From Rhynchobatus australiae (taxonomy: Eukaryota), in assembly GCA_034780895.1 (NCBI GenBank), contig JAUZTB010000057.1:13236267-13300266 (forward strand): a stretch of 64,000 nt of DNA. Direction: 5' to 3'. The notes beneath the pieces were generated by a model. That model ran no database searches and had not been told where the DNA came from. It saw only the letters and a list, made by a program, of their open reading frames with translations. Below, piece by piece: positions 2,443-57,990 of this stretch. How positions within the stretch are numbered: the first letter of the stretch is position 1; the number at the start of each line of letters is the position of its first letter. A program made the translations under genes and the position numbers.

Positions 2443-4039
2443 AACCTCAGCCAGTGAGTTGAGCAGATAACTTTTAATTGCCCACTAGTCCTACTGGCAC
2501 CTAACCAGTTGGGTTAAGCTCTCCTCGACCTTCAGTCTCCAATTCCAGTCTGATGAGTGTTGATCCATGTGTGAATGAAGAACTTTGACTATATACCAGA
2601 TGCACCATTTTGTATAATATGGTTAGAGGGGAAATGCAAGCTTGCGTAATTGATAAAAGAACTCAGGTGGGAGGCAGAGAAATCAATAAAAGGGATAAGC
2701 GCAAATGTGACTGCCATTTGGATATCTGTCATTCAATAAGGAGAGTAATTTTCACCTTCAGTATATTGTAAATCAAAGCCAAGTTGGCTCCAGAATGGGT
2801 AGGTAATCCCCTTTTCCAGTATACTTCCAAAAAATGTTGAATCAAACATTACAACTTCATATTGCAATCCAAATTGGGTGTTTTGAAAAAGATAGGCAAC
2901 TTTGTGAGACAGCTGAGTCTAACTAAACAGGTTTAAGTGCTACAATGAAATAAACGTTTCCAAGTGTGGGGGATAAAAAGACACATACTTTGATTATTCT
3001 TGTGTTTTCTATTAAAATTCAAATATATTGCCCTCCTCACTCTCACTCCTCTCCACAACACTGTACTGGAAACATTGTCGTGTCTTAACATAACCCAGAA
3101 CCTGAAAACTGTCCAAATTCTTACCATCTCTATATTTCCTTCCCATTGACAATGGATGTTTCATTTCACAAATCTAAGCTGGGCCTCTTCAAAAGTATTG
3201 AATGTTTCTTAATTTATCTCATCTTATTCTAACTCTTGGAGGTGTACAGGCCTAAGGGATGTGAGGATCCTTACTGAGTTTTCCTAATTAAGGTTTAAAA
3301 ATCATAAAGAATCAACATTGAGAAACGTCACCTCTGACCATAAAATGTTGATAATATTTGGAATATAGCCCACATTTTAGTGGATCTCATTAATTCTGAA
3401 GGGGCTAATTGTCAGTTTGAAAATTCCAAACTGAGTAGGAGTAAAAGTCAACTTGCCAGCTCTCTGCCCTCCTGTAAAAGTCTTGAGCTGTTTGGCAGCT
3501 TATGGAATTATTGTCTGGAATCGTGCGTTGGTGTGTGCTAGGCAGAAGGTCTGTTTCAAGTAGATGGGGATATGACCCATAGAGCAAGGCAGCCCTTACT
3601 GTCCTCTGTTGTCAGACACATTTTTCCACTGTATTGGCATGGAAATATAAAAGGAATCTATATGGCCCTTGCCAGAAATTTATTCCTTCTGAGACTTAAC
3701 GCTTTACTTGTCGTAGTACATCAACGTAGCCTAAATGAAGCTATACCTGCAATCAGGCTGAAACTATCCATTTAGATTTTCATTTTGAAAGACTGCACAT
3801 TCAAATCTTCCTCTGCTGTTGTTTGCGACAATATAAATATCTCTTTCCTTGTTGAGCTGAAGGCATCCTGCATGTTAATGTAACTTGAAGAAAGTTAACA
3901 TAGAAACTTGTCCTTTGTAAATTCACTGAACAATTGAGCATCCCAACTGGTAGCAGAGGTCTTTGTCACTGAGGTGACTTCAAAAGTCAAAGGAAGAGAG
4001 CTGCATGTCAAGATCGCTCCTCAATGATAAGAACAATCC

Positions 4040-4230
4040 CCAAAGAGGTGATCACTCCCATAAACAAGAACAACAGTCTCAGAGCACTGTTGAAAGTAAA
4101 GCATAACCCTTCTTTGATGCACTTCTCCCTCAACTAATGCCATCAACAAGCAGGCCAGCTTGTTACTTCATTTATTTGTGGAATCTTACAACAATGGCGG
4201 TCATATTTCTCTGTATAACTCCACTGCTCT
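4040..4230 (+). mobile_element. Deu-domain SINE fragment
   Basis: GCACTGTTGAA..CCCCTCAACTAATGCCATCAA..TTTGTGGAATCTT..ATGGCGG resembles the Deu core and tail. Confidence 0.4.
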
Positions 4231-4967
4231 TCTGATAGGTGGGTTATTAATTGTTTTTCTAATATAATTCTAAAAAGTGAGATAAATGTTTGCATCACAG
4301 AAATGTTCAACCATTTTTGATCTTCAAATCATACATTTTTTTCCTGCGTTTCTGTAATATTTGCCAATAATTTCAGAGTGTTGTGCTGTGGCTAAATTCA
4401 CAAATGGCCATATTTACCACTTTGCAATTCTGCAATGTGCTATAGAACAGTTTTCATCATCAAAGGCTCTGAGTAAATGCAAGTTGTTCATTGGGTCTAC
4501 TGGTTTAAAGGAATTTTCACTCATATTGAGGGGATTAGTTTTGACAATTCTGCCCACTTTCCTGAAAAGACATAGGTCAGTGATTTTGCACTTGCACTCA
4601 TTTCTGGATACAATTCAATGTTAACTTCAGTAAAACACATGCCAAAAAAATGGAAGAAAAATGAAAAGGTTATCAACAAGATAGTTCACAAGTTCATGAT
4701 GCATTCCAGCTTTTTGTCAGAGCAGGAGGTGTCAGAAAGTCTGGCCCCTGCTTCTATCAGCTCATGTCCCAGGTATTCAAGTGTAGGCGATAAAAAGGGA
4801 TCACAGGTTCAAATTAAAAGCATAAGCAGATAAACCTTCCAATGCCCAAAGGCTGATCATCCTCCCATGTGGGTGGGTGATTTACTTGGCACCTTTCTCA
4901 GCCCTGGAACTTTTTCCTGGTCACCAGCAGTTCCTGCTGAGTTCACACTCAGATGCAAATACAAAAT

Positions 4968-5325
4968 GGTTATAGAGTCATTGAGTTACGCAGCACTGAA
5001 ACAGGCCCTTCAGCCCAACTCGTCCATGTCGGCCAAGTTGCCTGCCTGAGCTCATCCCGTTTTCCTGCATTTGACCCATATCCACCTGAACCTTTCCTAT
5101 CCATGTGCCTGTCCAAATGTCTTTTAAGTGTTGTAATTGTAGCTGCCTCTGCCACTTCCTTTGGCAGGTTGTTCCACACACCCACCAATCTCTGTGTAAA
5201 AAAAATGTTGCCCCTCAGGTCCATTTATATCTTTCCCCTCCAACCTTAAATCTATGTCCTCTAGATTTAGACTCCCTATCTTGGGGAAAAAGACTGCGAC
5301 CACTCACTTTATCTATGTTCCTCAC
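4968..5325 (-). mobile_element. CR1-type LINE 3' end
   Basis: ORF 4970-5224 (FFTQRLVGVWNNLPKEVAEAATITTLKRHLDRHM) is the CR1 ORF2 C-terminus plus tail. Confidence 0.9.
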
Positions 5326-5690
5326 GAACATACAGAATCACCATGAAAACAGGCCCCTTGACCCACCATGTCCCTGCTAACTATCAGCCACTCATTTACA
5401 TTAGTCCTACATTAATCATATTTTTTATTCTGTCCACATCCTCATTAACTCCTCCCAGATTTTATCGCTCACCTGTGTACAAGGAGCAATTTACAGTGGC
5501 CACTTAAGCTACCAATGCTCATGTCTTTGGGATGTGGGAGGAAGCTGGAGCATCCGGAGGAAACCCACCTGGTCATAAGGAGAACGTGCAAACTCCACAC
5601 AGGCAGCACCTGAGGTCAGGATTGAACCTGAGTCTCTGGCACTGTGAGGGAGTGGCTCCACTGGCTATGCAATTGTGTTGCCCACACATA
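5326..5690 (-). mobile_element. HE1-like tRNA-derived V-SINE
   Basis: The reverse strand has a tRNA-like head with B box GGTTCAATCC, the V-domain TGTGTGGAGTTTGCACGTTCTCC..GGGTTTCCTCCGG, and a CR1-like tail. Confidence 0.8.
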
Positions 5691-5799
5691 TATACAGATG
5701 TTCTCTTATGTTTTAAAAAAAAGAGCAAATTGTAAATTTGACTTCAGGCATAACTGAGTTTTTGGAAAGATGTTTTTAAAAATATACTTCTGTGGAAAA

Positions 5800-5936
5800 A
5801 AAATGTTCTGATGAAAGATGATCTTCTTGAAAGCTTAACATTGTTTCTCTCACCACAGATGCTGCCTGACCTCCTGATTATCTCCGCCATTTGTTTTTAT
5901 TTCAGATTTGCAGCATCCACAATATATTGCTTCTGT
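5800..5936 (+). mobile_element. Penelope-like pseudo-LTR copy
   Basis: CTGATGA..GAAA followed by TGTTTCTCT..CCACAGATGCTGCCTGACC..TTTTTATTTCAGATTT..CAGCATC. The same unit recurs many times in the window and caps the GIY-YIG remnant at 57.2-58.0 kb. Confidence 0.75.
5802..5842 (+). ncRNA. Minimal type-I hammerhead ribozyme motif in a Penelope pseudo-LTR
   Basis: Stem I AATGTT (5802-07)/AACATT (5837-42); core CTGATGA (5808-14); stem II AAGA/TCTT with a 6-nt loop; GAAA (5829-32); palindromic stem III within AAGCTT; NUH = CTT (5834-36). Confidence 0.6.
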
Positions 5937-6757
5937 ATTCATGCAAATATTAGTTGCTTTCCACTGTGTGTGTTCTCTCAAGCTAGCCTTGAACAAAGAA
6001 ACAATTTATTTTGAGGAAGCTGTCCTCACATCTTATGATGTTACAAATCTAACCTACCATATTTAAATAAAGCTTCAATATTATACCCATAGAGGGATAA
6101 TTTACCAGCTTGGGGATTTATTAAAAAAATATTTTAAGTCTCATGCATAACACTGAATTAATATTTAAAAATTCCTTCAAGACCATGTAGAATTTTTCAA
6201 CAAAATATTGCCCTTAACTGAAATCACTCTTACCAGTAGCACGATTCCCTTCATTAATAATTGATTTGATAGCAGTATATGGGAAAATTACTATTAAACT
6301 AGATTTTCAGAATTTTCAGTTACTTTTTCTTATCTTTGCTGTTAAGTTAGCTGCTTGTAAATGCAGCATACTGTTTTTAAAAAAAGCATCAAATCAAAAA
6401 GTGAAGCAGAGGCAAATTTTACTTGGCATCTAATAGTGGGATGCCTCAATGGGAAAATCCCTGGGTCACTGAAGTAAGAGAACAGCCTTTAGCTCTCACT
6501 CTGTAAGAATAAGCTATTAACACATTCAGGAGCTTCTGTTCCATGACTGCTCACTGTTAGTGGGTAATTAATGGTGTTTGTTCAAAGCAGGACTAAAAGA
6601 TGCAGGGTTATTTTAGATCATTAGGCTACATTATAGCTGAAAGAAACATGTTCGCTTCATATTGCTTGGTCTCAGCTCCTTAAACCCTTGCCCCATTTTG
6701 TACATTAATTTTGCCCTGCCCTTTGTAGGTTCTCCAGTATTGCACATTTTCCTTGAC

Positions 6758-7060
6758 ATTAGAGTCCCTCAGGATCAAGGATGACATCTTCCACTCCAGT
6801 TTTGTGGCATCTGAGGTGACTAGTGAGGCCAATGTGGCTGCCACAGAGTCTTCCAAAGATGGAGCAAGAGGTGCCGAATGGACAGGTGAATGATAGTTTG
6901 TATGCTCCTTTCACCACTGGATTTCTGGACGTTCCCAGTGCATGGAATTGAGAAGCTCTCCACCTCCGCTTTGAGCGGTCATGGACAAGGAATTCCCAGG
7001 AGTCTGTAGTATCTTTCCCCAAGGAGATTTTAAGAACATTCCTGAAGATTTTCCTCTCAG
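6758..7060 (-). mobile_element. RTE-clade LINE 3' fragment
   Basis: Translation DSWEFLVHDRSKRR...CSIFGRLCGSHIGLTSHLRCHK matches the RTE/BovB-like C-terminal motif. Confidence 0.75.
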
Positions 7061-7081
7061 ATGGAAGAACTCAGTATATGA

Positions 7082-7242
7082 AAATCAAAAAAAAACTGCA
7101 GATGCCGGGAATTTGAAATAAAACAGAAAATGCTGAAAATACTCAGCTAGTCAGGCAGCATCTGTGGGAAGAGAAACAAAGTTAATATTTCAGCTTGATG
7201 ACCCTTCATCAGAATTGTATTTTCTGTTTTGATCTCAGATTG
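7082..7242 (-). mobile_element. Penelope-like pseudo-LTR copy with hammerhead core (7180-7216)
   Basis: The reverse complement reads AATT-CTGATGA-AGGGTCATCAAGCT-GAAA-TATT-AACT followed by the same tail as the 5800 copy. Confidence 0.75.
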
Positions 7243-8639
7243 AATATCTGATGTCCTCCGACTGACAGGGCAGAGAGGAAGCCTTTGCCTGAGCCCAGCT
7301 GATGATACAGTCATTTGGAGGGAAAGAGCAGATGCTCAGAAGAGATAAGAGTGGGGCTATGGAAATGAATGGAAATAAAACAAGCACAAGACCAAGCTTC
7401 TTTTCACCCCCATAGATATCAAAGGATCGCTGGTGTACTTCATTCGTCTGCAGATACTGGCCTGGTGCTATATCACCACATTAATCCAATTCTGAGAGCT
7501 ACTGTCACATGTCAAGCTGACTCTTCCACTTCTGGCTTTGTTTTCAGCAGGAGAAGGCTCTGATTTGATCAGGCCATTTGAAAACGTATTCTGATTCATG
7601 GCCTTTCCACCATATTCCTTTTGGAGCAAGGGAGAATAAACCAGAAGCCCTCTGAAGGTCATATTTAATTTTAAATATTGACTCCCTTTGGGAGCTGGAT
7701 AAAATGAGGCCTTAATTTAGTATTGAAAACCTGCATTTCCCCAGTATTGGGAAAATAAAGGCCAAATGGGTCTCATGAACATGTCATCCTACAGTCGTGT
7801 GCCATGATCCATTGCATCCGTGGTCCAGTTGCCATTTAGTCTTCGGAGTGAGACAAAAATAAAGGTAAATAAAAATCCAGGTCACTCTGGGGGAGGTTGT
7901 GTGGGTCGGGAGGGGAGGGTTGATGCTTGAGGCTGTTGCATGGACTGCAGAGGCAGTTCGTTGGGTGGGGAAAGGGTTGGGGTTATTAGTTAGCAAGGAG
8001 AAAACTGAGAAATTCCTATCTAACCTACTAAGATGATCAAAGCAAGTTTCAAGGATCAAAATGATTACAAGATGGGTGACAATATGATAGATGTCTCTAC
8101 ACCTCACATGTTAAATCAGTCGTAGACTGGATCTTGCCCATTTTGAATGCTTGCTGAGAATTTGCAGTCACTATATGAGAAGGCAATTTCATCCATTATT
8201 AAGTGACCATATGCAAAATGAAAAATCTCAAAACTTCCATCCTGGTTCTTAGTGTTTGTGATTTAGGTGCATGACCTCTGACTTTCCCAAACTTAATCAA
8301 CTGGAACAGTTATTGACACAGACACACAAACTGTTTCCACAACCATTTAAAAAATCTCAAACAAATTTCCATCCTCCTTTTTGTGGAGGACAGCTAACTG
8401 GCACTTAAATCCTTTCATAGTTACCAGATAACTTTAGGCTAAAAAGCATTCTAATGATATTCCTCCAAACCTTTTCCAATGTTTTCATATCTCCCTAGAT
8501 ATGAGAAGGCTACAACTGGCCTCTGTAAAATAGATGAGGTCTAACCAATGTCTTGCATATGGATATTTTATTCCCTTTAGTTTTGTACTGGATTATCCAA
8601 GTAATACATTCCAATACTATTGCTTTGGCTCTGTCTTTT

Positions 8640-8830
8640 CAGCACCGGACACAAGCATTTAAAGTTTTATTTACAATTACATGTGAATCATGGTTTCGCT
8701 CAACAGTTTTCAAGGTTGTAAACTTACATTGTATATGTGTGTTGATAACACCACCTCTATCTATATTGAATGTGACATTACTGTCTATCATCGGATCATT
8801 CCCCATCACATCCAAATCTGCTTGAAGTTT
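8640..8830 (-). mobile_element. Old CR1/L2 RT fragment
   Basis: LQADLDVMG....NVTFNIDR..VI resembles the LQxDLD..W...FNxxKCxV motif. Confidence 0.5.
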
Positions 8831-9510
8831 TTTTTCCTCGCAAAACTCTTCATCTTTTATTACAGTCAGTATATTAGGCCAACGGTGTGAATGATATTTT
8901 ACCAGCACAGAACATGACTTACCTGACTGAAACTTCAGAATATGGGAGGCACCAAAATGTCTTAATATTGTGCCTTTTATTCTCATTCCTGTCATAATAT
9001 TATGACATCATTATTTTTTTTAAGTCTCTTTCCATACACATCGCAGTAAAAAAAAATGCCTTTTTAAATGGCTCACTCAAGTGAACGTATTAAGGTAAAT
9101 CACTTTAAACATAAAGAGCCCAGCTGTCCCACTTGAGCTGCATAATCAGGATGGAGCTCAGCTGGTCACCACATGCAAGCTCTGCCTGCACACTCCTTCC
9201 CATTCTGGTTGTCTGTTTGTTAATCCCATGCTGCACATAACTTGGATGAAATGATCTGAAGTGAGCTCTGACTTGCTGATGACCCTTCCAAGTCTAAGCA
9301 AGGATGATCATGAAGTGTTGATGTGACAGCTTTGTTGTTTTCCTTCATCTTCTTCCTGTTTGAGAATGGGCTTCGACTTCCCAGACCAGAGTTGCCATTG
9401 GAAATACATTGTTATAATACTTCATGAATGGCATTAAGGTGTTCAGAAGCACAATGCCAGTTTTAACGTGACTGTTTCCTCCAGTTCCTGACAAAGCCTG
9501 CAAGTTGCAG

Positions 9511-9770
9511 CAACCAAGAATCTGCTAGAAGAACTCAATGGGTCTAGCAGTATCTGTAGGAGGAAAGGAATTGTCTATGTTTCAGGTCGAAACCCTAGGT
9601 GCTGAGATAGAAGTGAGATAAAAGGCTGAGATACAGGGTTGGGGCATTCATGATGCAGGGTTTTGATATGAAACATTGGCAATTCCTTTCCTCCCACAGA
9701 TGCTGCTCAACCCACTGAGTTCCTCCAGCAGATTGATTGTTGCTCCATATTCTTGTGTCTCTTGTGTCTC
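9511..9770. mobile_element. Palindromic Penelope pseudo-LTR pair with target-site duplication
   Basis: Arm 9511-9596 is the inverted copy of arm ~9657-9741. Flanks are CCTGCAAGTTGCAG (9497-9510) and CCTACAAGTTGTGG (9770-9783). Confidence 0.75.
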
Positions 9771-11499: not shown

Positions 11500-12850
11500 G
11501 AGATCAAGCATGACATTCAGGGTTTGTGTTTCCTGAGGTGACTGGTGAGGCCAATGTGGTTCTTCCACAGCTGAGGCCGGGGTGGGGTGGGTGTGGGAGA
11601 GGGGGTGAGGAGGGTGGGGTTGAGGCGGAGCAGGAGGGAGGGGGTGAAGAAGGTGGATGGGAGTTTGAGTTGGTCCACTCCTCTATCAATTATGCTGGGT
11701 TTCTGCATACTCCTGACACATGGATTCAGGGTTCAGAGTACAATCCTGAATGTCCTTTCTCCTCTTTGAGCAGTCACGGATCAGGGATTGCCAGGAGTCA
11801 GTGGGAACGTTCCTCTTTTTCAAGAAGGCTTTGACCGTGTCTATAAATCTTTTCCTCTCTATGCCCAGTAACCACTTCCCATTACAGAGCTTAGAATAGA
11901 ATGTCTGTTTCTGGAATCCGGTTCCGATATGCAAATGACGTGGCTTGACCAACAGAGCTGAGTGTAATTAAGATCTCAGTACTGTGGATGTTGGCTTGGG
12001 AGGGAACTCTAATGTTGCAGATTTTGCAGAGACCATTGAAGGTACCTTGAAGTACCTGTAGTAGGTAGCTCTTGTCTCAGAAGCACATAGGAAGGCAGGG
12101 ATTACTGCTGCCCAGCAGATCAGGGGTTTTGTGCTAGGTCACAGACCAGAGTCATAGAGTAATACAGCACAGAAACAGGCCCTTTGGCCCAACTTGTTCA
12201 TGCCAACCAAGTTGCTCATCTAAGCAAGTCCCATTGGCCGATGTTTGCCCCATGCCCCTCCACACCTTGCCTATCCATGTACCCATCCGAGTATCTTTTA
12301 AATGTTGTTATTGCAGCTGCCTCAACCACTTCCTTTGGCAGGTCCTTCCATATACGCACCACCCTCCGCATGAAGAAGTTGTGCCTCAGGTCCNNNNNNN
12401 NATCCTTCCCCTATCACCTTAAACCTATGCCCTCTAGTTCTTGATTCCCTTTCCCCGGGAAAAAGGCTGTGTGCATTCAGCCTATCTATGCCCCTCATGA
12501 TTTGATACACCTCGATAGTCATCCTTCCTGTGCTCCAAGCAATAAAGTCATAGTCTGCCTAACCTCTCCCTATAACTCAGGCCCTCAAGTTGTGGCTGCA
12601 TTCTTGTAAAGGTCTGGGGTCTTGAATTTCAAATAATTTTTTCCTCAGTTGATCAAAGGCTGTGTTGGTGCATTGAAGGTGGTAGTGAATTTCATTTTTG
12701 ATACCTCCCTTCGCTGAGAGGTGGCGTCTGAAATATGGGGTGTGATCCATGTTTTCCAGGGACTCAGGTGAACCATTATCATCAGAGGCTGCTGCTGTAT
12801 AGTGAGAGGTAGATTGTCAGGAACTTCGTTCAAAGCACTGGAGCATATGA
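11500..12850 (-). mobile_element. RTE-clade LINE fragment interrupted by a CR1
   Basis: QKQTFYSKLCNGK..G..RKRFIDTVKAFLKKRNVPTDSWQSL..D and HIGLTSHLRKH motifs; RTE sequence resumes at ~12610-12850. Confidence 0.75.
12141..12609 (-). mobile_element. CR1-type LINE 3' end nested in RTE
   Basis: IEVYQIMRGIDRLNAHSLFP...SRTRGHRFKV motif plus CR1 tail; AGGTC occurs at both junctions. Confidence 0.85.
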
Positions 12851-13345: not shown

Positions 13346-13560
13346 AGATGTAAAATGCCAGAAAATTTCAGCAAGGCAGGCAGTATCTGTGGAGAGAAAA
13401 ATGGGTTAACATTTGAGCTTGATAACCTTTTTATTAGAACGAGGAATGATTTAGAGGAGCAATAAAACTTAAATTGCAGTTTAAGTGGGGGGAAGATGGA
13501 GAGATAAAAGGAAGGTCTGTGACACAGTGGAGGTCAGGGGGGACAACATCACAGTGAAAG
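13346..13560 (-). mobile_element. Decayed Penelope-like pseudo-LTR and adjacent body
   Basis: CAGCAAGGCAGGCAGTATCTGTGGAGAGAAAAATGGGTTAACATTT matches the family in reverse. Confidence 0.6.
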
Positions 13561-13617: not shown

Positions 13618-13755
13618 TGGAATCATACAGCATGGAAACGGGCCCTTTAGCCCAACTGGTCCATGCCGACCAGGATTCCCATCTTAGATGGATCCATTTG
13701 CCCACATTTGGCCCATATTCTTCTAAACCTTTCCTACCCATGTACCTGTCCAACT
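13618..13755 (-). mobile_element. CR1 3'-tail fragment
   Basis: CATACAGCATGGAAACGGGCCCTTTAGCCCAACTGGTCCATGCCGACC, the same tail as at 4970 and 12150. Confidence 0.8.
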
Positions 13756-14599
13756 GCCACATCAGCAGCTTCCAACTGGAAGTCTGGCATTGGTTAAAGT
13801 TAAATGAAGAGGTGCAGTTAAAGGTGCCCAAACGTTACCCCTGGCCACACAATGAATTCAAATGGCTACATTTTAATGACTAAATTAAACACAAACATTC
13901 AGAATTAATTTTGTTAGCTGCAGTTGACAAGGAGTTCAGCCTGTCACTAAAAGCATCAAGGGAATTCATGCTGAAAAATGATGGTTCTGAGCACTTCTGG
14001 ATTGTAGAAGTTTCATCCCTTTGTTACTGATACTTAGCAGAATTTAGAGAACTTAACACTAAATCTGACACTGGAACAATGTTTTTTTGTTGCATCTCAC
14101 AGGTAATTGCTGAGTTTATACTGATGGTTTATATTGATAAGCTACTGTAATGTCAGATGCTGGACTAGTGCCAGACACCTAAATAATACAACAAAAATTT
14201 ATTAGCTTTCCAAAGTAATATTCCTGCCTGAGTTTCCTGCAGTTAAAAGGTTCTCTTTTCTCAGAAAAAGAGAGGTTTTTGACAAGCATATACTTAATTA
14301 AAGTATCAATCATTTGTCTCGTGCTGTGGAAACCTGTCAGTTGGCAACACAACAGAATGTACAGAAGCCCCTATTGGGCAACAGATTAGATGTGATTATA
14401 TTTCTGAAATCAGAAACAAACTCCTCCCATGAAATAAGTTTGTAAGCAATACCATGGGGAAAAAATTTAACTCTTTATTCAAGTTCTGTGTATTTTTAAC
14501 TGGTTGTGTTCATGCTTGTTTCAATTTACAGTGGTAGAAGTGTCACATACTGTTGCTTTGAAATGCAGATGTTCCTACATTCAGTTGGTGATTGTGAGC

Positions 14600-20483: not shown

Positions 20484-20960
20484 TTAGGAGCAGGAGGAGG
20501 CCACTCTGCTCTTCAAACCTGCTCTGCCATTCAATAAGGTCATGGGTGCCCTGACTGTGNNNNNNNNNNNNNNNNNNNNNNNNNNNNNNNNNNNNNNNNN
20601 NNNNNNNNNNNNNNNNNNNNNNNNNNNNNNNNNNNNNNNNNNNNNNNNNNNNNNNNNNNGTGATCTCAATAGAACATTCATGTCTCCCCCCCTTGCTTAT
20701 AAAGAATTGATTTCCTCCTGCCTTAAAAAAAAATCAAAGATTCTGCTTGCACTGCTTTTTGAGGAAGAGAGTTGCAAAGACTCACAACCCTCTAAAAGAA
20801 GAGAACTTCACCTCATCTCTGTCTTAAATGGGTGAATCTCGAATTGGGGATCACTTGAAAACTGAAGTGATCCCCAATTCTAGATTCTCCCACAAGAGGA
20901 AACATGCTTTCTACATCCACCCTGCAGAGACCCCACAGCATCTTATATGCTTCAACTGAA
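20484..20960 (-). mobile_element. CR1-type LINE 3' fragment (spans a gap)
   Basis: EAYKMLWGLCRVDVESMFPLVGESR motif and the TTAGGAGCAGGAG.AGGCCA tail. Confidence 0.75.
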
Positions 20961-23020: not shown

Positions 23021-24284
23021 TTCCCTTGCATGCAGGAAGAAATAGTCAAAGGATTAACAGACTGATTAACAGTCTGATGGACCATGATATTAAAAAGTCC
23101 TTGTGTGCTCCTATTATCCTAGCACTAATAGTCCTTTAGCAGCTTCTACAGCTCAGACAAAGAATTCATGGTGGGGGCAAAGAAGGCAATCCTACTCCTG
23201 CTTTCACTCATGCCTCCACTAACGAGATGTCAATCCAATACTCCTTGCCAAAGCTGCAATTTCCACTTGCCATAATGGCTTGAATGCTGAACTTCCTGGC
23301 TCAGAAGCAGGAGTGATGTCATTAGTCCAAAGGCTCACTTCTTGCATTCAGTCTGTCATGTGAAGTTGGAAATATGCTTTTAAAGAAAGACCTCGCAGAA
23401 GAAATTTTCACAAACACAGTTACCACACCACTACAGATCAGAACCAAAGAGATCCTTCCCCCACGGTGGTTACTGCGGCTACAGACAGTAAATCAGAAGT
23501 AACTTAGATGAATACACCTCCTTTGGTGTAATACTATCTCTTAAATTGGATGCCACTATTTTTAAATTGATTTTCTTTTGTCTTGGAGCTCCCAGTATAT
23601 ATTTTTGACAGAATTCTTATTTTGAAATATCTTGCAGCCATTGTGGTGAATATACAACAAAATCAAATTTTAAAACAAAACATAAAAAATGAATAATTTT
23701 TGCTACAATTTGATCAATTTTTTTGCATTTTAAATGAATTATAAAATTACGAAACTGGCTGATACATATTTCCTTGTATAGGGATGTGAAGTAAAGGATA
23801 TGCTCAACAATAGCAATTATAGAAATTGGGATATATTGTTTAAGAAAGCATGCCTAGTAGTTGGATTCATATGCACATGTTTTTATGCACACTTTGTGTG
23901 GTAAAACCATTTTCTGTGCATTAGATCATTCAAGTGATCACTTCCTGGCTTATTTGTGACCATAAGGAAATTGGCCTGGNNNNNNNNNNNNNNNNNNNNN
24001 NNNNNNNNNNNNNNNNNNNNNNNNNNNNNNNNNNNNNNNNNNNNNNNNNNNNNNNNNNNNNNNNNNNNNNNNNNNNNNNNNNNNNNNNNNNNNNNNNNNN
24101 NNNNNNNNNNNNNNNNNNNNNNNNNNNNNNNNNNNNNNNNNNNNNNNNNNNNNNNNNNNNNNNNNNNNNNNNNNNNNNNNNNNNNNNNNNNNNNNNNNNN
24201 NNNNNNNNNNNNNNNNNNNNNNNNNNNNNNNNNNNNNNNNNNNNNNNNNNNNNNNNNNNNNNNNNNNNNNNNNNNNNNNNNNNA

Positions 24285-25010: not shown

Positions 25011-25440
25011 AATGAAAGAGAAGTTTAAAGTTCAGATACCAGGTGCCCATTTCCTATTCCAAATGCAGGCCTGACCCTTCTTACTGTTCCCCCTTACTCT
25101 CCTCTATACCACAATTGTAAAAGGACAGACTTGGTTAAAGTGGACCAGGAAAATAGAGTAAGGTGGTAGATTAGCAAGGACATCTTTCATTAACCTCAGC
25201 AAATGTATATTCTGGTGAAAACCGCATAATAGGACACGGAGGGGTAGAGATTCGTATTCAGACAAGTGATCAGTTTTTCAGGGGATGATTTTGGAAACAC
25301 AATTATGTAGTGAGAGAAGGAATGGAGATATAATCAGTTTGTCTAAATGGCATTGGCAGTGAGAGTGGGGTGGGTTAGTGGGAGCAAATGTCAAGAAAAT
25401 TTCTTAAGGGAACCTATCTCGGAACTTTAATACCTTGACC

Positions 25441-25632
25441 AACACAAGAAGTGCTGGAGGAATTCAGTGGGTCAGGCAACATCGGTGGAGGGAGATGGAC
25501 AGTCAAGACCCTTCATCTGGACTGGAAACGTCAACCGTCCATTTCCCTCTACAGGTGCTGCCTGATCTGCTGAGTTCCTCCAGTGCCTTTTGTGTTGTTC
25601 CAGATTCCAGCATCTGCAGTCTCTTGTGTCTC
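25441..25632. mobile_element. Palindromic Penelope pseudo-LTR pair with target-site duplication
   Basis: 25441-25505 is inverted relative to ~25530-25596, and the centre retains GAAACGTC. Flanks are TAATACCTTGACC (25428-25440) and TACTACCTTGACT (25633-25645). Confidence 0.8.
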
Positions 25633-28600
25633 TACTACCTTGACTCCCAGCCACAAACCTGGTAAAATTGGTTTTCTTTAACGAAAGCAGAAATGGGCCT
25701 CAGACACACAAATGAATATTTTTCACGTAGTGTTAGAACATGAATTGTAGGCTATGCATGGAAGACCAGGAACAAATTTTGGAAACCAGGTGACTTGTGA
25801 ACAAAGGACCCAATCGTATGTAACAGTCAGGCTTCAAATTAAATTCTTTCTCTTTGTGCACTGAAATGTTTTCCTTTGCACAAGGGTTTCTAGTCATTGA
25901 TATTTTCTTTCCCCTGGCACACTTTGGAAACTTGGTTATCAAAATATACTTTTCCTTCCTTTAGATCTTGAATTTGAGGGATTTTTCACTTATGCACAGA
26001 CACTCTACTGAAGCTTATCTCATAGCAGCTACACTGTGTGCTTCAGTAGCATCTCATATTCTGGTGCTTTACATACAACTGCTGGTGCTGTATATATTAT
26101 TTCATTCTTGCAAATATTTGTAGTCACTGTGCAGGCATTGAGGCATTCCAGCTATGAGCAAAGTTATAATTTTAATGTCACTCACAGGTTGGCTATTTAC
26201 CTGATATCTTACTGCAGAATCGAAAGATATCTTAAATTGATAGTTCTGCTGCAGTAGTTCTTCATGCTGTCTTTGTCTTGATGAAACAGCCCCTATGATC
26301 TATAAAATGTAGTCTGGTGAAAGACGCCACAATTCCTACTAGTTCCAAATTTATCGTATCAGTAGTAGAAATCACCAATGCAAATCTACCATGCTGAAGT
26401 CATTTAAATACCACAGAGGACAAGCCATTTTAGACATCAGGAAATCAAATCCCATTTCTCAATTAAAATTGTTTATTCTCAGGATGAGTACAAGATTCAG
26501 ATTTGATCTATAACCCTGAAGGGTAATGGTAGGGCATTCTGACAAATGTTTGTAGATTCTTTTGTCTTCCAAGTGAGAGAGAGCACTATATTCACACAAG
26601 CAGTAGTGGTCTTTCTTGAAGTGAAGTGTTAAATACAAGAACGATCTTCCCTATGATTTTCACAAAAATTATGGCTTTCTCCTACACCCCTCAGGCAGAG
26701 AATTGCAAATTTACGTGACAATCATGCTTATTTCATACAGTCTTTACACATAATCCACTCTTAATTGCAACTATCAAGATGAAAACAAAGTATGTATTAT
26801 ATATTTAACTACTATTGGTCGGAATAGCTCTTTTTAGCTAAGGGCTCAGGTGATGTTATGGATCAAGAGAATAACTGGTTTATGGACATCATCCACATCC
26901 AAATCTAATCTTATTATTGACTTTTTAAAGCCTTTTATTTTGACATACAATATTGTTGTGCAATTCCTGTAAAATGGATGTATCCCTAATGAGAATTTAG
27001 AAAAGTGCTGACATTAGAGTGAATGAAGACTGCAAGAGGCCATTGTGATGGCACCATGACAGAATAATAATATGATGGGACATACAAGATGGCATTACAG
27101 AGGAATTAGGGATGGTCAGCAGTAAGAAATAGGACTATAATTTAACTGAGATAGTCAGATGACATCATAAACCACACTCCTTGGCTTGTTTACAGGTATT
27201 ATCTCCTCCAAGAGATTAAAGCAAGTTTGTAGTCACATTCAACTGTTGGGTTATAAGCAAGCAGTGGAAAATTCTTATTGCAAAAAACTTGTATGTGATA
27301 AATATTGGGAGCTGATTCAATGAATTTTACTGACCGACAGCTTGCTGTAATAAAGAAAGTATACAGCTTAGTTCAGGTATATGAGGAACAATCAGCCCAT
27401 TGTGGAAATTGCTGCATTTCTCCACTTTGTTTCAATGGTTCTAATGCAAAAAAGGTGTAGTATTCATTATTCCTTCAGATTGTGAGCCTGTAGGCTTGAC
27501 CTGAAACTGGCTGCATGTTGCACAGAAAGGACTGGGATCTTGAGACTGACTGTTTCCTGTAGCTGAACTCAGATGAATGTTTTGAAAGTGCAATTAAGAG
27601 AAACAATCTGTGTGCTGACAGGGATTAAGTGCTCTGTGACTGGAGGCATTGGTTTGCATTGATCTGTGAGGCACATTCCAATGCTCTTATGCCTGAACAA
27701 TGGAAGAATTGATGAGCATTCACTTTTTCACTTTAAGCAGATACTAATTTCACTATAAGAAGAGAACTGTTCTATTCATTTCATTCAAAATGATTGGAGA
27801 AATCAGAAATATTTCACTAATGGCATTTTGCCATATTCCATCTCACCAGTTTTAGTTGCAATGAAACTGGCAACTTCAGTTAATTGATTCAGTTGCTTCA
27901 ATTAAGTGATAATTTATCCTTCCAGGTTTTGACAGTTCGGTGACCATGGTGACATTCTTTGATATACTATGGCTCCATCTGAGAGCAAAAACATGTAGAA
28001 CACTATTTCTATTAAGCATACTTTACTACAAGCTTAAAGACTTTATTATTTGGGTATTTCTGCACTTAATAAATGAAATAAGGTTTCAACCTTATATTAA
28101 GACAGAATTAAGTATTTTATCATAACTTGAAACTTCAGCCATATCTTATGCCAACACTTTAGGTTTGCACATGAACTAGAACAAGAATTCTCAGCAGATC
28201 TGAACTATGGTAAGTTCAAGGGACATGCTGGTGGGTCGTAAGCAGGGATTTCAAGATGACCCTGTCCTTTTGAACATAAGTGGAAAGATCAAAGGTCCAA
28301 AGGTCCAGACTTGTATTGCACTCAAAAATGAACTTGAATGTATATTTATTACAACTTGCCCAGAGAAGATTAATCAGCAAACCCAGAGAACACTCTAATT
28401 GGCAAGTTTCATGAAATACATTTTCAGCGGTGTATATTAAAACTATTAAAATATTTCCAAGAAATCTCTTTAAACAGAAAGCTGAAGTCATGGAAATACA
28501 CAGGATTGTATAATCCACTTTGTTATTATGGTAATAAACCATATTCTCTTACAAATGCTTCTTTTAATATAAACTCACATCTCCATTGAAAAATAAGTCA

Positions 28601-30564: not shown

Positions 30565-31000
30565 AACACAGAAAGAGGCCATCGTCCCACTGGGTCTGTG
30601 CCAGCTCTCAGACCAATCCCGTCAATCCTGTTCCCCCACTTTTCCCTGTAACCTATTCTCTCTCATGAGCTCATAAACTACATTCTGATTGTCCTACCTC
30701 CAAATAAGACGAGGAGTAATTTACAGTGAACATTTTGCTTTAAAATGTTCTCTTAAAATTGTCAATCTGNNNNNNNNNNNNNNNNNNNNNNNNNNNNNNN
30801 NNNNNNNNNNNNNNNNNNNNNNNNNNNNNNNNNNNNNNNNNNNNNNNNNNNNNNNNNNNNNNNNNNNNNTCTGTGGGATGTGGGAGGAGACCAGAAAGAA
30901 CATCCATGGAAATCCATGCAGTCACACAAGAATATGCAAACTTCATATAGATAGCACCAGAGGTCAGGGTTGATTGAACCAGCACCATTATGTTGCCATA
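30565..31000 (-). mobile_element. HE1-like V-SINE (decayed, spans a gap)
   Basis: Homologous to 5326-5690 (GGGATGTGGGAGGA..GAAA.CCA.GCAGTCAC..TGCAAACT..AGCACC.GAGGTCAGG). Confidence 0.7.
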
Positions 31001-35290: not shown

Positions 35291-38200
35291 GTAATGAGTG
35301 GAAACTGGATGTGAACACTATGAATAGCACCCAAAGGAAGAACTACCTGAAAGGCGATGGGCTCCCAGGCTGCAGGTTAATATTTGAAAAGCAAGCTTCA
35401 GCTCCCTAATTAAGGCCTGCTTTGGTGTGTTTGGCCTGCGTCATCTGCAGGCTTTGAATGCACAGAAAGAGTTTTGAGCATGTGATGGTGAAACGTGGTT
35501 TGTACACCAAGTGGGTATGCATGCCTGACAGCCTCTACGCCTGTGTCATATGCACAGAGGACCCAGAACAAACTTTCAGCCATGTTCCACCCATGCCTTG
35601 AGGACTGAATTATGTTCAGTGGTTGGGATTTTGATAAAATTTGAGCTTTGTTGCACATAAAATTGTTGTGCTATACAATAGAATTTCCAGTCACCTGTGT
35701 TTGCCATGATTACAATGCATATTTGCTGCAGGTAAAACATAGCTAGGGCATAAGTTATCAGTTTTTGCCACTAAAAAGTTGGGAAAAAGAATCCCAGAAA
35801 GCCTACCTGCACATAAGGCTTTCTTTTATTCTTTTAATCACTGTTGAAACCTGGTGCCAGCAATAAATGTTGACCATGCATGATGTACATTTTCATTCAC
35901 TTTGTTTCAATAAGGTGATTGTGGCTTTCAAATCTTCATATAGACCACTGGCCAACCTCATTTGCTCATGGTCAGCAGTGAATAAGGCAGCATAAGTGAA
36001 ACCGTGGGCGGAACAGGGACAACAAGCAAAAGAAGTTCACAATTACATGAAAGTGAATGAATATATTGAAGATATATTGAAGTTAAAGTCTGAAAGAGTC
36101 TGTAATCATTACTGGCCTTTTTAATTTTCTTGTGCTTTATGGAGACTGAAAGATGATGCATCTTTTGAGTAATGGTTTTTCAAAACATCCTGAATTTTCC
36201 TGAATACATGTAGAATGCAACAAAACTCCCTCAAATGAACCAAACGTAAAATTCAAAAGATTTAAGTCCAGTGTACATTTGATCCAACACAATGTCAACC
36301 CTCATTCATAATGGCATCTTTCTACAAAAAAGCCAGGCAGAAAATAATTAGCATTGAATCTGTTCCATTCAGTCTTGCAGCAAGCAAGCAATGTGAGCCT
36401 TAATATGCCCCAGCTCCCTGCAGCTCTGTAATTCTCCAATGTGGGAGAGGCAACAAAAAGTCTTTATTGATTTTAGAAGAAAATTCTTAAAGTGGTCAAA
36501 AACAAGTTCCAGGAAGATAACAGTGACAATGAAATACATACCTGCAAACTCGTCATACTTTTGTGTACACCACTCAGCCACTTCTGGCAACTTATGCAGC
36601 CTCCTTTAAATATTTGCAGTGAGCTGCACTCAGTACATGAACTGACAATGGTCAATGATTCTTGGTGAAAAGAGAAACCTCTTGACATCTAACCTAGATC
36701 CATGCTTCTGTAACTTAAAACATAAATATTGTATTCACACAGCATATTATTTACATTAGATATCTGCGGCATTATGTCTGAATTCGATCAAATTAAAACT
36801 GCACAAACCACAGAGACTGTAATAAAATGATTTAACTCAAAAAGGTCATCTTTAGCAAGTGACAATTTTGTAGGCTTTCCCATTACATTTGTCTGATAAA
36901 TTTATGAAAAGTTATGGATGAAAAATGACCATCCAAAACATCAAAGCTTATCCCTCTGGTACTTTACTGTCACTCCAATGTCATCTAGTTTCAATTTGTA
37001 GTCACAGACTGGTCTCCCCTTGACTGGGGAGACCACAGATTAGTGACCACAAAGCCAAACACCTTCATTCACTCCATAAATGACTCGGAGCACCTGGGGC
37101 CTGCTGATTTACCATGACTATCANNNNNNNNNNNNNNNNNNNNNNNNNNNNNNNNNNNNNNNNNNNNNNNNNNNNNNNNNNNNNNNNNNNNNNNNNNNNN
37201 NNNNNNNNNNNNNNNNNNNNNNNNNNNNNNNNNNNNNNNNNNNNNNNNNNNNNNNNNNNNNNNNNNNNNNNNNNNNNNNNNNNNNNNNNNNNNNNNNNNN
37301 NNNNNNNNNNNNNNNNNNNNNNNNNNNNNNNNNNNNNNNNNNNNNNNNNNNNNNNNNNNNNNNNNNNNNNNNNNNNNNNNNNNNNNNNNNNNNNNNNNNN
37401 NNNNNNNNNNNNNNNNNNNNNNNNNNNNNNNNNNNNNNNNNNNNNNNNNNNNNNNNNNNNNNNNNNNNNNNNNNNNNNNNNNNNNNNNNNNNNNNNNNNN
37501 NNNNNNNNNNNNNNNNNNNNNNNNNNNNNNNNNNNNNNNNNNNNNNNNNNNNNNNNNNNNNNNNNNNNNNNNNNNNNNNNNNNNNNNNNNNNNNNNNNNN
37601 NNNNNNNNNNNNNNNNNNNNNNNNNNNNNNNNNNNNNNNNNNNNNNNNNNNNNNNNNNNNNNNNNNNNNNNNNNNNNNNNNNNNNNNNNNNNNNNNNNNN
37701 NNNNNNNNNNNNNNNNNNNNNNNNNNNNNNNNNNNNNNNNNNNNNNNNNNNNNNNNNNNNNNNNNNNNNNNNNNNNNNNNNNNNNNNNNNNNNNNNNNNN
37801 NNNNNNNNNNNNNNNNNNNNNNNNNNNNNNNNNNNNNNNNNNNNNNNNNNNNNNNNNNNNNNNNNNNNNNNNNNNNNNNNNNNNNNNNNNNNNNNNNNNN
37901 NNNNNNNNNNNNNNNNNNNNNNNNNNNNNNNNNNNNNNNNNNNNNNNNNNNNNNNTAACCTAATCTAGCCTAAGATCACCCTTTGCGTGCCACAGGACTC
38001 AGATTTGTCCTGGGTGAAACATACCGGTGGCCTGCCTGCCAAATGGTTGGCTGCCATTAAAATCCAGTGCCCAAGGTCAAGTGTTAGTGGGTCAGTGACT
38101 GTTTCAGGCTCTGTGCACCACTTTAGGACTGAAGTGGAGGAGGAGAGAGGGCCAGCTGTCATTAGTCTAATCAGGGACTTAAAATGGTGATCTGTTAAGT

Positions 38201-44689: not shown

Positions 44690-45839
<1,150 letters not shown>

Positions 45840-46077
45840 GCTGAATTAACCGGCATCAAATGGCGTAGGTACAGTTTCCAGGGACTTGGGGGCTGTGGTC
45901 CCATCATCTCAGCACCAGCTCAGGATGATCCTATTTTGCAGACATTTATTAGATGTCTACAGGCCAATCTGCTGTGTGTATGGCGACGAGATGTGAGACC
46001 TGAAGCCAAGGAATTGTGGATTTACTGGTGGGGAGAGGAACCGAATCTAGTTGATATAATTCATCATGAATTACGAG
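45840..46077 (+). CDS. MED13L: MED13L coding exon 2 ([79 protein letters not shown])
   Basis: Acceptor ...aaccaacAG at 45838-45839, then a 238-nt open exon in frame with exon 1 and a phase-1 donor G/GTGAGT at 46078. The translation closely matches the MED13L N-terminal domain ([32 protein letters not shown], ELWxxWWGxEPNL). Confidence 0.97.
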
Positions 46078-57189: not shown

Positions 57190-57990
57190 TCAGAAAATGC
57201 TGGAAGCACTTACAGGACAGGCCTCATTTCTGGAAAGGGTAATGGTTAACATTTCAGGTTGAAGACTCTTGTTTCATAACTGGAGAAACCAGAGAAAACA
57301 ATTTAATTTCAAATTGCGGAAGGATAGATTGGGCAAAGGGAACATCTGTGATATGGTGAGGCTCGGTTGATTGGATGTTTACAGAGCTGTCTCATGGATT
57401 AACGAAGGTAGAAAACAAAACCTGTTATGTGAATCAGAGCTGTTGCTGCAACATGAAACCAAAAGGAGAATGCTAGAAGTGCCCAAGAAATAAGGTAGAA
57501 CCTGTGGAAAGAGAAAGTGAGTTAGCAATGGATGGATAACTGTACAGAATTGGCCAATTCTGACATGCACAAAAAAAGTGACTTATCTGATATTGTTCAT
57601 TTCACTGAGTCTCAAAGAATAAAATGTGCCTGCATGAAAGATAAGGTACTATTTATTCTTCAAGCTTATATTGGGCCTTGTTGGGAAAACTGCAGGAGGC
57701 CACAGACAGTAGTGTGGGAATGGGATGGAGAACTAATGTGTCAGGGATCTGGAAACTTGGGATTGCCCTTGCAGACTGAATGGAGTTGCTTTACAAAGTG
57801 GTCATCCAATCTGCATTTGTTTTCATCAATGTAAAAGAGACCAGGTTGTGAGCAGTTCGCCAGATTGGAAGAATGAATCATTGCTTCACCTGAAAGGAAT
57901 GTTCAAAATCTCTGGTGGGAAGAGATGAAGTAAAAGGGCAGGTATTTTATCTCCTGTGGTCGCATGAGAAACAGCTGTGAGAAGGAGTGT
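57190..57990 (-). mobile_element. Penelope-like retroelement 3' remnant: GIY-YIG endonuclease plus pseudo-LTR
   Basis: Minus-strand translation ~57854-57690 gives CSQPGLFYIDENKCRLDDHFVKQLHSVCKGNPKFPDP*HISSPSHSHTTVCGLLQ, resembling the PLE C..CGLLYIGETKRRL..RF.EH motif with stops. The pseudo-LTR is at 57190-57285. Confidence 0.8.

Follow-up and report, generated by a model that had tools for sequence, protein, structure and literature searches.

A hammerhead-shaped motif upstream of a MED13L-like gene: head of a dispersed repeat whose helices may have been re-paired by self-copying

The hammerhead-shaped motif at positions 5802-5842 of the window (the whole 64,000-nt stretch of DNA analysed here) is real. 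It heads one copy of an abundant repeat, and the reading towards which we lean, with modest confidence, is that its helices were re-paired, for the most part, by mirror-image self-copying and not by selection at the locus. We regard it as an ordinary remnant with a curious mutational history. Minimal hammerheads in the end-pieces of Penelope elements are already published and present by the thousand, and the motif as such matters little. In these repeats, fold-back arms and template switches can yield stems that look compensated, so covariation seen in a single copy should not be taken as a sign of function.

The motif and its fold

An initial annotation of this DNA gave the letters and the coordinates of the motif, and on re-reading every element is found as it had been described: the 6-bp helix I, the CUGAUGA and GAAA boxes, the 4-bp helix II, the palindrome AAGCUU, and the CUU triplet with the predicted cut 3' of 5836. 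Helix I joins 5802-5807 to its 3' strand at 5837-5842 (forward strand) through six Watson-Crick pairs, which can be read directly from the sequence. The core CUGAUGA at 5808-5814 (forward strand) is intact by sequence and fold prediction, and helix II follows with 5815-5818 paired to 5825-5828, three of the four pairs being A-U. The segment 5829-5836 (forward strand), again by sequence and fold, holds the GAAA box (5829-5832), the palindromic helix III (AAGCUU, 5831-5836) and, at the end of the palindrome, the NUH triplet CUU with its predicted cleavage site. The palindromic pair 15.2-16.2 is G5833-C5834, where the family has C-G, and the predicted energy of the homoduplex is -6.3 kcal/mol.

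In the fold prediction, helix II and the inner pairs of helix I have pair probabilities of 0.89-0.99, either alone or with 30-150 nt of context, while the outermost pair (5802-5842) has a probability of 0.53 alone and 0.81-0.84 in context. A strict descriptor (the core, helix I of at least 6 pairs, helix II of at least 4 pairs and the palindrome) matches one site in the window, 5802-5842, and none in 1,642 dinucleotide shuffles; a very loose descriptor adds only one window site, the sibling copy at 7212. The folding energy of the motif is unremarkable on its own (z -0.64). The search with Rfam hammerhead models that the initial annotation had proposed was run. It yields no match at gathering score anywhere in the window, and over 5600-7500 nothing matches at E<=10 either.

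The repeat family

The motif is the head of a dispersed repeat of ~135 bp. Eight other copies served to build a profile, which detects 11 pieces within the 61,468 readable bases of the window; these make up nine insertions, two of which are head-to-head pairs. The copy that bears the motif is matched over 5826-5923 at E 6.8e-14 by this profile, made without it, and its tail (5843-5929, forward strand; profile match and contig pile-up) is common to thousands of copies. The nearest sibling (7094-7241, reverse strand; profile, fold and arm test) has an intact core, broken helices, and an inverted piece of the tail directly upstream of its head. A fold-back, head-to-head pair at 9485-9768 belongs to a related subfamily, and a fold-back copy at 25413-25645 is centred in its own hammerhead and carries a 9-nt direct repeat at 25431 and 25636 (both by profile and alignment).

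Some further details of these copies are recorded here. The two halves of the 9485-9768 pair resemble each other at 82% over 91 nt, and a short spacer separates their heads; both tails of the 25413-25645 fold-back face outward; and in the 7212 copy the inverted piece, from the far tail, lies at 7219-7241, just upstream of the head. Two weak copies (57191-57275 and 57443-57522, both reverse strand) are placed ~250 nt apart on the same strand in an intron of the MED13L-like gene, and the copies at 13389 and 31702 (both reverse strand) have the same 11-nt word 35-60 nt after the tail anchor.

For relatives, 13 public runs from five organisms cover 3500-9500, and four runs (organisms B, D and E) are aligned to 5690-6330 at 88% likeness. 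All four contain matching contigs in large number (3,699, 5,067, 6,131 and 4,849 per run), piled on 5844-5887. The family head reconstructed with loose ends (58-96 contigs per run) consists of the core, a single unpaired A, a helix II of 5 bp whose loop has 3 nt, GAAA and a C-G helix III, and it agrees with the published minimal hammerhead consensus (PMC4209133, Fig S3).

What kind of element does the repeat come from? The minimal hammerheads in the pLTRs of metazoan Penelope-like elements (Cervera and de la Pena 2014, PMC4209133) and the window copy have in common CUGANGA, GAAA, a loop-less palindromic helix III and a short helix I, and, like the window repeat, the published hammerheads occur mostly as solo copies, dispersed and in high number. 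The window copy differs from them in having no unpaired nucleotide before helix II in the register that pairs, an A-U pair in place of G10.1-C11.1, and no linked RT-GIY-YIG gene to be seen; among the rows of Fig S3 examined (PMC4209133), none is from a chondrichthyan. Some members of the published family lie in a pLTR beside an RT plus GIY-YIG ORF. In the window no RT or GIY-YIG gene could be linked to the repeat, and the 11 pieces have no upstream body in common, apart from their own fold-back partners and one unrelated repeat. Because no such gene is linked to the repeat, the Penelope assignment is made by motif and architecture. The repeat is probably what is left of one end of a Penelope-like retroelement, dead and 5'-truncated, and the descent from a Penelope-type minimal hammerhead, as first suggested, fits well.

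The animal non-LTR retrozymes described in a recent preprint (bioRxiv 10.64898/2026.07.22.740005) are also Penelope-derived, hammerhead-bearing non-coding repeats, and they are reported from one chondrichthyan genome. They form tandem arrays with at least two complete hammerheads, however, whereas the window copy is solo: there is no tandem unit at the motif, and just one further core in the window is intact, at 7212 on the opposite strand. The supplements of the preprint may list chondrichthyan families. No published description of the present repeat was found in the open literature on hammerheads and Penelope elements in sharks and cartilaginous fish; since Repbase, Dfam and subscription journals lie outside that literature search, the repeat may well be catalogued already.

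The tail motif has no match in viral contigs and none in metagenome contigs. The family-head pattern matches five loci in prokaryotic genomes (scores 12-19), none with the tail, and these are taken as chance. The translated repeat finds no proteins sharing words with it. Of the two representatives from the translated-repeat search, P0001 is the translation of another tail copy with a truncated head, and P0002 is an unrelated tick repeat protein. A search for the genomic locus of P0001 gives 596 pattern matches with none confirmed, and P0001, as a predicted protein, is likely spurious. A stop-free frame of 86 codons at 5754-6014 (forward strand) spans the whole repeat, with an ATG at 5811 inside the core; we take this frame as chance.

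Helix II

The initial annotation had described the stems as apparently compensated. The pairing stands, in that the helices are predicted to form; the compensation is not confirmed, with helix II shifted by one and helix I probably lying over an inverted self-copy. The comparison is made with a family ancestor that is the majority of five copies, with three positions corrected, and two such ancestors are tested. The copy differs from the family at 5818, 5820, 5824, 5825, 5827, 5833, 5834 and 5840, and at 5816 too, depending on the ancestor. If helix II is held in the family register (5815 unpaired, 5816 with 5828), the fold check gives just two pairs, an A-U and a G-U, beyond which the bases mismatch. 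Four base pairs form at 5815-5828 (forward strand; family comparison and fold) in a register that has slipped to include 5815, the unpaired nucleotide of the family, and in this pairing register the unpaired nucleotide between 9 and 10.1 is absent. Judged by this comparison of sequences, the changes in helix II do not compensate one another at homologous positions, and the helix pairs only in the slipped register. Two rows of Fig S3 are likewise without an unpaired nucleotide between 9 and 10.1, and three have A-U at 10.1-11.1 (PMC4209133). In the window copy the 10.1-11.1 pair is A-U in either register, G10.1-C11.1 being absent, and the family majority at this pair is itself G-U or A-U.

The differences in helix II are consistent with a template switch. 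The putative tract at 5817-5825 (forward strand) is a perfect 9-nt reverse complement of the earlier 5815-5823, and this one tract covers three of the differences (5820, 5824 and 5825). Given an equal number of random changes, three differences over at least 8 nt are reached in 0.6% and 0.7% of 4,000 simulations for the two ancestors; under a looser rule, with three differences and a tract of at least 6 nt, the null rises to ~5%. This test and the arm test described below were picked after viewing the sequence, and their p-values (0.006-0.016) are modest. We propose that one local template switch would have inverted the helix II loop and rewritten 5820, 5824 and 5825, and that a single transition at 5827 would then have finished the shifted stem of 4 bp.

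That template switching can make or mend stems, and can turn loops around, is already known (PMC8794818). In the stem-making switches of Monttinen and Loytynoja (2022, PMC8794818), as here, a single local reverse-complement copy, free of mismatches and with its loop inverted, accounts for the cluster of differences. The present case differs from theirs in that the switch is read from a family consensus and not from an orthologue tree, and in that the host is a repeat and not an RNA gene.

Helix I and the insertion

The flank of helix I points to a fold-back arm. The likely arm at 5795-5807 (reverse strand; complementarity and flank tests) is a decayed inverted copy of 5837-5849, possibly extending out to 5789/5859. 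The two segments are 85% complementary over 13 nt, which extends the six pairs of helix I; 5789-5795 matches 5853-5859 in inverted orientation; and the inner 6 nt of the arm are the 5' strand of helix I itself. When the arm test is anchored and the six chosen pairs are omitted, 46 of 2,868 random flanks score as well, and when it is unanchored 1,286 of 19,117 do. Five of the next seven bases beyond helix I pair, which is equalled by 1,853 of 122,766 window 7-mers. Two post hoc tests give p ~0.015 for an inverted piece adjoining the element's 5' end. Inverted pieces at the head are also found in three of the eight other insertions (7212, 9.6 kb and 25.5 kb). Four other heads were put through the arm test: three lack an arm in the nearest 45 nt, and the remaining one is a half of the 9.6-kb pair whose arm begins further out.

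Penelope insertions have been described with inverted 5' copies beside the element, and such arms are typical of them (PMC8557442, PMC3846280). In those insertion units, an inverted 5'-truncated copy is adjacent and a target-site duplication is optional, and here too the inverted piece abuts the 5' end. The siblings resemble such units, being clear fold-backs, one of them with the 9-nt flanking direct repeat. The window copy differs from the published units (PMC3846280, PMC8557442) in that its arm is only 13-19 nt long and decayed, and its duplication is weak: the candidate 7-nt target-site duplication, at 5787-5793 on the left and 5930-5936 on the right, is matched in length by 1,174 of 19,111 random flanks, or 6% by chance. 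As the candidate duplication overlaps the outer arm, the two cannot both be fully counted.

We propose that, at insertion, a short inverted piece of the 3' part of the element would have been fused to the head where helix I offers homology. The two strands of helix I would then derive from one template, and the T5804-A5840 pair would be a copy and not covariation, because the 5' strand would be the inverted arm. To judge from these alignments, helix I likely copies itself.

Helix III and the subfamily question

The change in helix III is a double transversion, CG to GC, at 5833-5834, and no single template switch accounts for it. Simulated copies reach a G-C helix III in 0.07-0.32% of cases, and the siblings show the usual CpG decay at this site. 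Since the swap is left unexplained, a small compensated subfamily stays a live rival, one that we hold possible and yet rather doubtful. It would be small and old; its master would have re-optimised the hammerhead (shifted helix II, G-C helix III) under transposition selection, with the template switch belonging to the master lineage, and the copy itself would be dead. The helix III swap finds its explanation there. Moreover, point decay from the main consensus, simulated over 6 million copies per setting, yields strictly complete heads with at least 8 changes in only 1.0-4.3 per million copies. Published Penelope hammerhead families are highly variable and rich in compensatory changes; at least five rows of Fig S3 have a G-C helix III, and the Marsupenaeus row has no insertion, an A-U-closed 4-bp helix II and a G-C helix III (PMC4209133).

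Do other copies carry such a head? A non-orthologous contig in organism B aligns to 5808-5870, differing at 7 of 63 positions. Of an old subfamily with a pairwise distance of 22%, only ~2% of the members would be visible at the threshold used, and tens of copies are therefore possible. The other counts speak against the subfamily. Neither the G-C helix III nor the 4-bp slipped stem occurs in any of the eight aligned window siblings, and the protein-level searches returned no copy with a head of the 5802-5842 type. The summed depth at 5800-5821 is just 17-48, against 2.6e5-8.3e5 over the tail and 4.6-13.6 in the single-copy flank, where depth is not copy number. Among the 32 longest of 20,417 pieces, just two extend to the 5' core, namely the orthologue in organism B and the non-orthologous B contig named above. 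Because a single piece of these 32, apart from the orthologue, reaches the 5' core, a large or young subfamily is unlikely; the distinct subfamily raised in the initial annotation survives as a possibility in its small, old form.

A further alternative is plain point-mutation decay combined with the reader's selection, with no template switch and no arm, in which one of several hundred thousand copies happens to pair. The numbers of copies are indeed large: the density in the window extrapolates, roughly, to ~3e5 pieces per 1.7 Gb, loosely complete heads with at least 8 changes arise in 1-4 per 10,000 simulated copies, and the heads of the siblings depart from the consensus at 6-18 of 39 sites (two of these values inflated by misalignment). 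The strict class, however, is reached in just 1-4 per million and its G-C type far more rarely, and the 9-nt perfect tract and the 13-nt arm would both have to be coincidences. We consider this alternative improbable.

Under the self-copying reading that we prefer, about five point changes in 38 nt are left, net of the template switch and the arm, and the tail has 6 in 42. These remaining changes would be at the decay level of the tail, and the core, which stays intact in 4-24% of simulated copies, would have survived by chance. It is because the core survived, we propose, that the copy at 5802-5842 was singled out.

Predicted activity

An A10.1-U11.1 pair lowers hammerhead activity, and no measured rate for this pair was found in the hammerhead literature searched. 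Published minimal hammerheads show no cleavage as monomers and are poor as dimers (PMC4209133), and CUU is in the lowest NUH class, below the GUU of the family (PMC8879150). The caveats of the initial annotation on a weak CUU and an inactive lone monomer were right in this respect, and its suggestion of a possibly active RNA finds no positive support. A partner in trans is also hard to see: the only other intact core in the window (7212) is on the opposite strand, and its helix III does not match, with a predicted duplex energy of +2.4 kcal/mol against -6.3 kcal/mol for the homoduplex. The best predicted homodimer pairs through the inverted repeat of helix II at -18.8 kcal/mol, while the active-like form has -7.7 kcal/mol; these energies are weak evidence, as the model has no energy for core tertiary structure. 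In the Anolis Poseidon element, no RNA ends were detected at the hammerhead site, and catalytic mutants are without effect on insertion in vitro (PMC11167929).

The motif is very probably dead under either of the leading readings, self-copying or hidden subfamily. It is predicted not to cleave as a monomer, to cleave little or not at all as a dimer, and to play no role for MED13L. We give little credence to a combined reading, in which the template switch rebuilt helix II and the ribozyme is still functional as an AAGCUU homodimer, either in a hidden subfamily or by cutting an upstream MED13L transcript here since before the split from organisms D and E. If that were true, it would be a natural case of ribozyme remodelling in one step and a source of Penelope hammerhead variability. 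If such switches commonly seed hammerhead subfamilies, this would bear on the variability within genomes, an open question of PMC4209133.

The locus and its relatives

The motif had been placed ~38 kb upstream of MED13L, and the distance agrees with ours: the start near 44,723 is about 38.9 kb downstream of the motif. The gene at this position is taken to be MED13L from its peptide motifs. Its MED13L-like exons 1 and 2, at 44723-45960, fall in the sole CpG-rich bin of the window.

We now ask whether the motif has been kept at this locus. The orthologous contig of organism B spans 5690-5869 with four substitutions and one gap. Its listed differences are at 5766 and an extra A at 5795, with none from 5800 to about 5816; the three unplaced substitutions fall either in about 5817-5869 or close to 5690, where paralogue depth or the nearness of an end hides them. 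Because organism B is so close (97-99% identical in the region), its sameness says little. In organisms D and E, contigs join the tail to the right flank, and the insertion is older than the split from these organisms. All their orthologous contigs stop at 5848, and among the 24 pieces listed for three runs there is none of at least 50 nt over 5690-5822, a hole that is uninformative. By subtraction, their tail differs at 5-6 sites in about 84 nt, compared with 7 in 399 nt for the flank (Fisher p 0.014-0.041), and the word share over 6 kb (3500-9500) implies a divergence of about 5%; therefore the tail is not conserved. It likely diverges at about the regional rate.

These data bear on the idea that the locus was exapted upstream of MED13L as a transcribed RNA that cleaves itself and is held under structural constraint. 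Such a reading could point to the intact core and the helices robustly predicted in context, to the insertion that predates the D and E split, and to the stretch from 5800 to about 5816 where organism B has no listed difference. Set against it are the closeness of organism B with its three unplaced substitutions, the tail that is not conserved, a motif with a weak triplet and neither G10.1-C11.1, nor a monomer helix III, nor a partner, the homodimer whose best predicted form (weak evidence, as above) is not active-like, and the Poseidon result. We consider an exapted ribozyme very unlikely. The claim that the motif was kept under structural constraint gains no positive support: two of the three compensations would be mutational in origin, and the tail likely drifts at about the regional rate. 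The domesticated hammerheads in Clec2 and RECK (PMC6155905) also lie near a host gene; they differ, however, in being inside transcripts and drawn with tertiary contacts, whereas the window motif is ~39 kb upstream and minimal, and its tail is not conserved.

Several features of the surroundings may be noted. Runs of N, 2,532 bases in total, are at about 960-1640, 20560-20660, 23980-24280, 30770-30870 and 37120-37950 (approximate positions). Upstream of the motif are old repeats at 4974-5327 and 5524-5625, presumably the 3' end of a LINE and a SINE, with matches at 12148-12500, 13628-13756, 2158-2355 and 30870-30973. Downstream, organisms D and E depart from the single-copy flank at 5932-6330 at only ~7 of 399 sites, where ~5% is implied over 3500-9500, and this flank may be a conserved non-coding element upstream of MED13L.
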